Shown in pieces: positions 5,731 to 6,327 of a DNA stretch of 9,683 bases. This stretch comes from a virus (taxonomy: Duplodnaviria > Heunggongvirae > Uroviricota > Caudoviricetes). The stretch covers positions 1 to 9,683 of IMG/VR virus record IMGVR_UViG_2531839374_000010, one strand, 5' to 3'. Position numbers and translations under genes: made by a program. The notes under the pieces were generated by a model that saw only the letters and a program-made list of their open reading frames with translations, was not told the origin of the DNA and ran no database searches. Positions within the stretch are counted from its first letter, which is position 1. Each line of letters opens with the position of its first letter.

Positions 5731-6327
5731 TTAATGATTGTCGTGATAATTAATTGGCTCATCATTTTTTTGGTCTGGCATAGTTATGGACCACTTTATA
5801 TTCTTTAGGCTGTTATGTTTTTTATTGACCTTAAGCTCTCTCTTTGCTTCAGAGATAATATCGTCTAGTAATACTTTTAATTTATCAAGTCTTGACTTGT
5901 GGGCATCTATCAACTCTATACTATCAAACACCCATTGTATAAATAGATTTTCTTCATTTTCAATGAATGAACGGATTTTATCCCCACACTCTTCTGTTAA
6001 GAATAATGAAGATAGCTCACCTATTCTACTGAGTTTTTCAAGCTCATTAGAGAAAGATTTGCTAAGGATTTCATTTTCTTCTTTTGATTTGTAACTAAAG
6101 TAGGTTGGGAATTGTGAAGCGTGATGTAACTCATGTTTATACCAATAGTCAGCTGTGTTTTTTAGAAGATAAACACAGTCAACTAATTACGTATACAAAT
6201 CTATTCTTTTGTCCCACCATTTTTCTTTATAATAACGGCCGAGTGCATATCGCGCAGTTAAGTAAGCTGCGATTGAGCCTGTAACAAGTCCGATAATTAC
6301 CTTTGATATAAGGTCATGCCAATCCAT
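5731..6327 (-). pseudogene. AT-rich cargo ORF of 199 codons with one in-frame TAA at codon 47 (6187-6189); N-terminal transmembrane helix; candidate superinfection-exclusion or defence gene, function unknown
   Basis: ATG at 6327 with AGGA 9 nt upstream. The 46-aa N-terminus MDWHDLISKVIIGLVTGSIAAYLTARYALGRYYKEKWWDKRIDLYT is followed by TAA, then 151 stop-free codons in the same frame down to TAA at 5731-5733. There is no in-frame ATG/GTG/TTG for 85 codons after the internal stop. An 8-bp hairpin begins 8 nt after the internal stop. Confidence 0.55.

Follow-up and report, generated by a model that had tools for sequence, protein, structure and literature searches.

Several phage-borne systems resemble the gene described here in position, layout, or product. 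In lambda and P22, sieB is found at the head of the P_L operon, beside N and nutL, and in P22 it has its own promoter and follows gene 24 and nutL. SieB, which has ~190 amino acids (aa) and two hydrophobic segments, consists of an N-terminal membrane anchor and a soluble C-terminal part, and its gene is transcribed against P_L. Lambda also carries rexAB, lysogen-associated cargo near the repressor gene that lies between cI and P_L and is co-transcribed with cI; RexB, too, is a membrane protein. Morons, in turn, are independent transcription units that have spread by horizontal transfer (PMC3594210). Both HK97 gp15, a 62-aa protein encoded in the tail operon, and Sie2009 (Tuc2009) combine a moron layout with a single-pass membrane product, and both are described in a passage of PMC10883804 as blocking DNA injection. 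A single nonsense mutation in an IS-riddled remnant prophage is typical of Shigella genome reduction.

The locus studied here lies on the minus strand of a 9,683-nt stretch of viral DNA (the window, by which we mean this whole stretch) that is 99.94% identical to CP026731.1, i.e. S. boydii ATCC 8700 (PMC9430107). An ATG at 6327..6325, with a Shine-Dalgarno AGGA 9 nt upstream (6337..6340), opens a frame of 199 codons (6327..5731) that ends with a TAA at 5733..5731 and is interrupted by another TAA at codon 47 (6187..6189). Codons 1-46 (6190..6327) form the surviving ORF, which encodes a transmembrane (TM) helix at residues ~6-26, the sole hydrophobic segment, and a YYKEKWWDKR juxtamembrane motif. 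Codons 48-198 and the original stop (5731..6186) are now untranslated and encode what is predicted to be a cytoplasmic four-helix bundle. That codons 48-198 contain no stop is improbable by chance (P = 3e-6 from local composition), and the first in-frame start after the TAA is the GTG at codon 133. The gene is AT-rich, with 32% GC against 44-49% in the flanks. A first-pass annotation, made from the letters of the window, had recorded the start and its AGGA, the 199-codon frame, the internal TAA, the single hydrophobic helix, the stop-free downstream part lacking an early start, and the AT-richness, and all of these were confirmed. As detailed below, the locus is very probably a genuine prophage accessory gene whose copy here was inactivated by a nonsense mutation, in other words an ordinary Shigella prophage pseudogene.

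Origin of the stop at codon 47

Using megablast, we identified 16 complete E. coli genomes that carry the locus at 99.4-99.5% identity. Each has one annotated 597-nt CDS, which is intact and encodes a 198-aa "hypothetical protein" (WP_001764244.1), in agreement with the earlier description of a single ~198-aa gene with one internal ochre codon. A base-by-base comparison of the window with E. coli revealed four differences in 801 nt. At position 6189, codon 47 reads TAA in the window where E. coli has CAA (Gln); at 5930, codon 133 is GTG (Val) in the window and GAG (Glu) in E. coli (E133V); at 5745, codon 195 is CAC (His) in the window and TAC (Tyr) in E. coli (Y195H); the fourth difference is at a non-coding site. 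The coding region therefore shows no synonymous, two missense, and one nonsense difference, small numbers that fit what relaxed constraint after inactivation would be expected to leave. Neither Gln47 nor Glu133 varies among eight homologues with 52-99% identity, which come from metagenomes and from E. coli, Citrobacter, and Raoultella. At the nucleotide level, codon 47 reads CAA or CAG in E. coli and in the Citrobacter, Raoultella, and three metagenomic homologues. Among intact homologues, dN/dS is 0.05-0.22 both in codons 1-46 and in codons 48-170 and, because it is low on both sides of codon 47, the intact frame is one real gene.

At the level of allele comparison, these findings establish the TAA at codon 47 as a derived nonsense mutation, attributable to one C-to-T transition that converted CAA (Gln47) into TAA. 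Recent inactivation, the first of two readings offered by the first-pass annotation, is thus the one that stands, considering that CAA47 is present in alleles 99.5% identical to the window, that Gln47 is invariant, and that purifying selection is seen on both sides of it. The downstream frame is likewise conserved in relatives, with purifying selection on codons 48-170, and homologues do not all stop at codon 47, as the intact 198-aa CDS in E. coli demonstrates. The C>T change at 6189 arose within the lineage of a lambdoid prophage, degraded and integrated at thrW, that S. boydii and S. flexneri carry. Translation should now stop once 46 residues have been made, and the 151 codons that follow are drifting.

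The distribution of alleles in public assemblies is as follows. The 46-aa product is called on 451 contigs, complete chromosomes included, and in these S. boydii and S. flexneri assemblies the TAA allele is fixed. When six TAA-allele loci were fetched (L011-L016), the 597 nt were identical to the window in five, the sixth (L014) differing at one synonymous site, and TAA47, Val133, and His195 were common to all six. A second ORF of 66 aa, initiated at GTG, is annotated in S. flexneri and S. boydii as WP_000460406.1 ("MULTISPECIES: hypothetical protein [Shigella]"), and exists only because E133V created this GTG. The 46- and 66-aa annotated ORFs are fragments of one dead gene, and both WP_000460406.1 and the widely called 46-aa product need to be read as such. 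The intact protein was found on 666 E. coli contigs, and S. dysenteriae has a variant of 201 aa. Other alleles that were broken independently include a frameshift (P0008), an insertion after codon ~88 (P0010), and P0006. The prophage around the gene is a remnant that adjoins thrW-proA and has been heavily degraded by IS600 and IS911. With its single nonsense mutation in an IS-riddled remnant, the locus resembles Shigella prophage decay in general and shows nothing unusual; a point mutation has produced a further pseudogene in a Shigella prophage that is decaying.

Alternatively, the truncation could be adaptive, the 46-aa TM peptide with its EKWWDKR motif being kept as a small membrane protein with its own function, which could for instance be toxin-like or dominant-negative. 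Although the truncated allele has reached fixation, with one and the same sequence in hundreds of Shigella assemblies, the clonal population structure of Shigella predicts such fixation without selection. The start codon, Shine-Dalgarno, and promoter-like element are intact. Against this reading, the prophage around the gene is heavily damaged by insertion sequences, and the gene has been disrupted independently by the frameshift in P0008 and the insertion in P0010, which argues for simple gene loss. The peptide also bears a weak, non-significant likeness to the Ldr type I toxin (Pfam PF13940, E = 0.27), which at 11.8 bits is far under the curated gathering cut-off of 27. We therefore consider adaptive truncation improbable. 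As a separate observation, the surviving ORF retains its start signals, TM helix, and conserved motif, so that a residual peptide could still be made.

The second reading of the first-pass annotation was programmed readthrough or recoding, in which the TAA and a hairpin downstream of it would yield a short membrane peptide together with occasional full-length protein. The hairpin itself was correctly described. It is located inside the coding sequence (LVDCVYLLKNTADYW, 6153..6178, minus strand), 8 nt past the TAA, its arms (CUGUGUUU and AAACACAG) form a perfect 8-bp stem, and it belongs to the minimum-free-energy fold. This geometry is what speaks for recoding. The fold has a z-score of -2.0, which is weakly unusual, and at least one such hairpin is found anywhere in the frame in 12% of dinucleotide shuffles, and within 15 nt of codon 47, an interval chosen post hoc, in 0.4%. 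However, the CAA alleles have exactly the same hairpin, and in them the 71-nt segment is slightly more stable without the stop (-17.9 versus -15.6 kcal/mol with TAA). In the Raoultella homologue (73% identity), the inner stem of the hairpin is disrupted, and the hairpin is absent from the L007 and L008 homologues and from phage homologues, with no compensatory pattern among homologues at 52-73% identity. Being identical in CAA alleles and decayed in distant homologues, where it is neither conserved nor covarying, the hairpin predates the stop, is an incidental by-product of the coding sequence, and is no recoding signal. In addition, the stop is derived, with codon 47 being CAA or CAG in all intact homologues, the TAA allele is also changed at the invariant Glu133, and the stop is read as UAA-U, the context in which E. 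coli terminates most efficiently. Recoding is thus highly improbable, and the idea can be dropped. Finally, a sequencing or assembly error, for which we found no support, is effectively ruled out by the presence of the TAA allele in independent assemblies, several complete chromosomes among them. Across the results gathered on the stop, nothing substantial was found to count against the core of the pseudogene reading.

Position of the gene in the prophage

The gene lies downstream of a minus-strand gene for a YmfK-like prophage repressor of the S24/LexA family, the cI equivalent (6837..7511). Several elements, all on the minus strand, separate the two. An intrinsic terminator (6806..6825) directly 3' of the repressor gene is followed by a P_L-like promoter (TTGACA-16-CACAAT) embedded within three tandem 20-nt operator repeats (O_L; 6734..6797), and by a leader of ~440 nt between P_L and the gene. 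The motif TGTACC-N5-GRNACA has five matches in the window against 0.01 expected, and is confined to the tandem 20-mers and the repressor-cro intergenic region. Because all five matches fall there, we assign these regions as O_L/P_L and O_R, respectively. The leader contains an rrn-type boxA (GCTCTTTAACAA, 6632..6643, minus strand), and boxA plus spacer agree with the rrn boxA-spacer at 15 of 15 positions (reference sequence in PMC2724277, Table 1). The 5' part of the leader, through boxA, is common to more than 1,300 E. coli genomes; just past boxA, the homology stops. We rejected the svsR/co293 sRNA as an explanation for this conserved upstream block, since svsR lies outside the leader, at the 3' end of cI. 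When Rfam was searched, only a tRNA-Thr reached the gathering threshold, the leader giving sub-threshold noise. A consensus fold of the leader from seven divergent loci showed no structure, and one from four close loci, which is under-powered, showed weak structure.

Since the terminator and P_L/O_L intervene between repressor and gene, the P_L transcript has this gene as its first ORF, and the gene occupies the N/sieB zone. The rex/sieB-equivalent position proposed by the first-pass annotation is therefore right for sieB and wrong for rex, the gene being downstream of P_L/O_L. The likeness to SieB extends to zone (the gene follows P_L/O_L and boxA, and family members adjoin N in 6-7 of 37 viral loci) and to the overall plan of a protein of similar length with an N-terminal anchor. 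In contrast to SieB, the family protein has one hydrophobic segment instead of two, and its gene runs with P_L instead of against it. Moreover, we found no match to the Pfam SieB family at E <= 10, and the hhalign probability was 0.15% for lambda SieB and 0.27% for P22 SieB. A RexAB-type module was rejected because a terminator and P_L intervene between repressor and gene, because there is a single gene rather than a pair, and because no homology to RexA or RexB was detected (hhalign probability < 1%). HK97 gp15, at only 62 aa, is an analogue and was not retained as a relative.

The description of the gene as cargo was borne out. Besides being an AT-rich island, it sits in a slot that varies between otherwise syntenic prophages. 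In syntenic CPS-53/e14-like prophages (L025, L026, and L027), the slot holds different genes, namely a 171-aa hypothetical gene on the opposite strand or a 91-aa hypothetical gene. The gene thus combines the two features by which a moron may be recognized, i.e. deviant composition (32% GC versus 44-49%) and presence/absence polymorphism (L025-L027). A promoter-like element, GAGACA-17-TATGAT (6365..6393, minus strand), located upstream of the gene is a candidate for the moron's own promoter. In Raoultella, L007, and L008, for which coding dS is saturated, both hexamers are retained while the spacer varies; the number of promoters returned by a sequence scan is not above chance. On the other side of the gene, 8 nt past its stop codon, there is a terminator-like 10-bp GC-rich stem-loop (5701..5723, no strand assigned). 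Together, the GC island, the conserved promoter-like element, and the stem-loop after the gene suggest a moron layout.

The intact protein and its relatives

The restored protein differs from WP_001764244.1 at two residues besides codon 47. When the restored/E. coli sequence was used as a query, the sole family match was phrog_17948 (PHROGs v4, function unlisted), with E = 6.1e-95 and an alignment covering residues 1-185 of the 185-position profile. Unlike phrog_17948 and WP_001764244.1, the window copy carries the nonsense codon 47; neither catalogue names a function. A profile search of 1.84 billion cluster representatives (50% identity) returned 369 relatives at E <= 1e-3, all of which are ~150-200 aa long and share the same layout. 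In viral contigs, 132 relatives were identified. The family signature consists of an N-terminal TM helix, followed by AL.RFY.EKWWEKK, and a C-terminal AK..LK. Each of the 106 members examined has one TM helix with a short acidic N-flank and a K/R-rich C-flank. On the basis of the positive-inside rule, the K/R-rich C-flank points to an N-out/C-in topology and hence a cytoplasmic domain. An AlphaFold2 model built from a 45-sequence alignment (pLDDT 79) has a long helix spanning residues 3-70, which contains the TM segment, three further helices that pack with it as a four-helix bundle, and a tail that is disordered from residue 170. The intact 198-aa protein is thus predicted to be a single-pass inner-membrane protein with N-out/C-in topology, a four-helix bundle in the cytoplasm, and a conserved EKWWEKK motif at the membrane interface.

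Nothing significant was found in sequence searches of Pfam, NCBIfam, PADLOC, and the PDB with the single protein, or of Pfam, PADLOC, and the PDB with a 70-member family alignment. In PADLOC-DB v2.0.0, the protein has no match, and the 70 family members have only scattered matches at E > 7e-4. Fold searches returned only generic helical bundles. GiPD474, a defense protein from the Gifsy immunity region, was rejected as a relative because it has an ATPase domain and belongs to a different family. This absence of any relationship in PADLOC, Pfam, NCBIfam, or the PDB weighs against reading the protein as an exclusion or defense factor.

Close homologues are always just downstream of an S24 repressor gene. 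A 44%-identical homologue lies between cI and cIII in a lambda-like prophage, beside a DUF7946/7947 protein with a weak match to the PADLOC candidate PDC-S42 (E = 2e-5); no other PADLOC match was found among alternative slot occupants and immediate neighbors. We counted neighbors in 37 dereplicated viral loci. The commonest neighboring family is the N antitermination peptide, seen in six loci, with an N36 match in one more. Where N is recognizable, it is upstream of and on the same strand as the family gene, which in lambda-like relatives comes directly after it. Other neighbors are BstA (one locus), ParE-like toxins (two), colicin immunity proteins (two), Acb2/Tad1 (one), methyltransferases, and excisionases. 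In many of these loci, the gene is packed on the strand of the P_L operon with intergenic gaps of ~20-100 nt. Distant members outside phages, in candidate-phyla and environmental bacteria, adjoin Shedu SduA, SLFN/AlbA_2, and AAA_21 genes, as well as restriction-modification fragments, an IS91 transposase, and a group II intron reverse transcriptase. An association of the family with defense or accessory neighborhoods is suggested by this handful of loci.

Possible roles of the intact gene

The intact protein may guard its lysogen against infection by other phages, a proposal that we put forward tentatively. The gene, AT-rich cargo whose variable slot follows P_L and boxA, would be expressed in the lysogen, and its product would act at the inner membrane, on the cytoplasmic face, where it would stop incoming phages either by exclusion, i.e. 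blocking genome entry, or through an abortive-infection-type response. Such a protective role would be analogous to that of SieB, in the same zone but without homology, and would have been lost in Shigella. It is conceivable, with still more reserve, that the family as a whole comprises widespread single-gene, membrane-anchored anti-phage factors of the exclusion or abortive-infection type, carried by temperate phages whose hosts range from Enterobacteria to candidate-phyla bacteria. Its members reside in the N/sieB slot of lambdoid P_L operons and also in defense-island-like neighborhoods.

What the locus adds to routine Shigella decay is that the lost gene comes from an uncharacterized, widespread family. 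The useful lead is the intact family, which is small, easily cloned, common in temperate phages, and functionally blank; its slot houses SieB in lambda and P22, and it adjoins BstA in one relative. The lasting interest of the locus consists of this family and of a natural pair of null (Shigella) and intact (E. coli) alleles. Because the two alleles differ at three codons, a clean phage-challenge experiment is straightforward, and if the anti-phage reading is true, the Shigella allele is a natural loss-of-function control.

The main rival to an exclusion or defense function is that the gene encodes an early lytic accessory protein of the P_L operon, for instance a membrane-associated factor for host takeover or for the timing of replication or lysis, that is expressed only after induction; we consider this somewhat less likely. 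The gene is indeed the first ORF past P_L/O_L and boxA in the window, and in lambda-like relatives it directly follows N on the same strand, but the conserved promoter-like element and the AT-rich island suggest that it is transcribed independently of P_L. Short intergenic gaps in many viral loci would suit an operon gene, whereas the variability of the slot between otherwise syntenic prophages, and the members found outside prophages beside Shedu, SLFN/AlbA_2, and restriction-modification genes, argue against an early lytic role. The tight packing on the P_L strand is equally compatible with an early lytic gene and with a moron expressed in the lysogen.

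Early-left promoter and boxA leader

In the window, the early-left promoter and its operator repeats (P_L/O_L; 6797-6734, minus strand) differ in several ways from those of E. coli prophages that carry the same repressor. The operator unit is tandemly duplicated over 20 bp, with two exact copies of ACAATGTACCCCATGGACAC, as assessed by comparison with a homologous locus (L001, 4621-4760). The −10 element of P_L is CACAAT rather than the CATAAT of the same-repressor E. coli prophages, and several further substitutions distinguish the region from its counterparts in these prophages.

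Downstream of P_L, a conserved leader block (6500-6646, minus strand), which is also present in three homologous loci (L007, 5679-5850; L008, 3253-3424; L005, 5691-5845), contains an rrn-type boxA followed by a spacer, GCTCTTTAACAATTT, identical to the rrn leader at 15 of 15 positions. Directly after boxA and spacer comes a stretch of ∼130 nt that is non-coding and strongly conserved. Within it, the four informative sequences tentatively suggest two structural elements: a small hairpin, supported by compensatory changes, and a long-range pairing of CCUGUUUAG with CUGAGAACAGG that is conserved. The interval from P_L to the first gene has no N-like ORF. The boxA leader could be an antitermination leader that is based on Nus factors and independent of N. 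On the strand opposite the leader, several Shigella assemblies (L013-L016) have a gene call for an ORF of 52 aa (6387-6545, plus strand); this ORF overlaps the conserved block and is likely to be spurious.

Decay of the cargo gene and of the prophage

The pseudogene (6327-5731, minus strand) contains a 66-aa ORF at its 3' end (5731-5931, minus strand), listed in RefSeq as WP_000460406.1, "MULTISPECIES: hypothetical protein [Shigella]". The GTG start of this ORF arose within the pseudogene by the substitution E133V (GAG to GTG), and WP_000460406.1 is an annotation artefact. Among the E. coli and metagenome alleles of the gene, P0006 and P0008 have frameshifted N-terminal parts, and P0010 runs to codon ∼88 before continuing into unrelated sequence. 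These independent disruptions indicate that the same gene has been lost recurrently.

The rest of the prophage remnant is also altered. Its attachment site is thrW, a tRNA-Thr (CGT) gene (1369-1444) that adjoins proA (1-1254). The integrase (2621-1459, minus strand) is split at ∼2241 into ORFs of 152 and 262 aa because one nucleotide has been deleted from a homopolymer run, which is T6 in the window versus T7 in CP026731.1, the S. boydii ATCC 8700 sequence, where a single 387-aa ORF is called. The break reflects either a frameshift specific to this strain or a sequencing error in the homopolymer, and there is another 1-nt indel at 7821. The window includes two IS3-family elements (3112-4267 and 8479-9683), which from their transposase sequences we take to be IS600-like and IS911-like, and homology of the window to intact E. 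coli prophages is confined to 1-3051 and 4311-8442. The second element cuts off the prophage just after the ymfL-like gene, and replication, lysis, and structural genes are therefore absent.

Slot occupants, distant relatives, and the repressor 3' end

In syntenic E. coli prophages, the slot after boxA is occupied by other hypothetical proteins, of 171 aa (L025, 3729-4244, minus strand) and 91 aa (L027, 3708-3983), neither of which had a Pfam or PADLOC match. Distant members of the family to which the pseudogene belongs, found in environmental bacteria (L019/L020, L021, and L022, the last at 7001-7507), sit outside recognisable prophages. Across these loci, their neighbours include a 1461-aa protein that has no annotation, as well as Shedu (SduA_N/SduA_C), SLFN/AlbA_2, AAA_21, and UvrD; fragments of restriction-modification genes also occur there, as do an IS91 transposase and the reverse transcriptase of a group II intron. 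These neighbourhoods are defence-island-like or mobile-element in character.

A 2026 paper maps the phage-protective sRNA svsR (co293-like) to the 3' end of cI in NC-SV prophages, to which it ascribes a relationship with e14. The repressor in the window is YmfK/e14-like, and the 3' end of its gene corresponds to 6837-6900.
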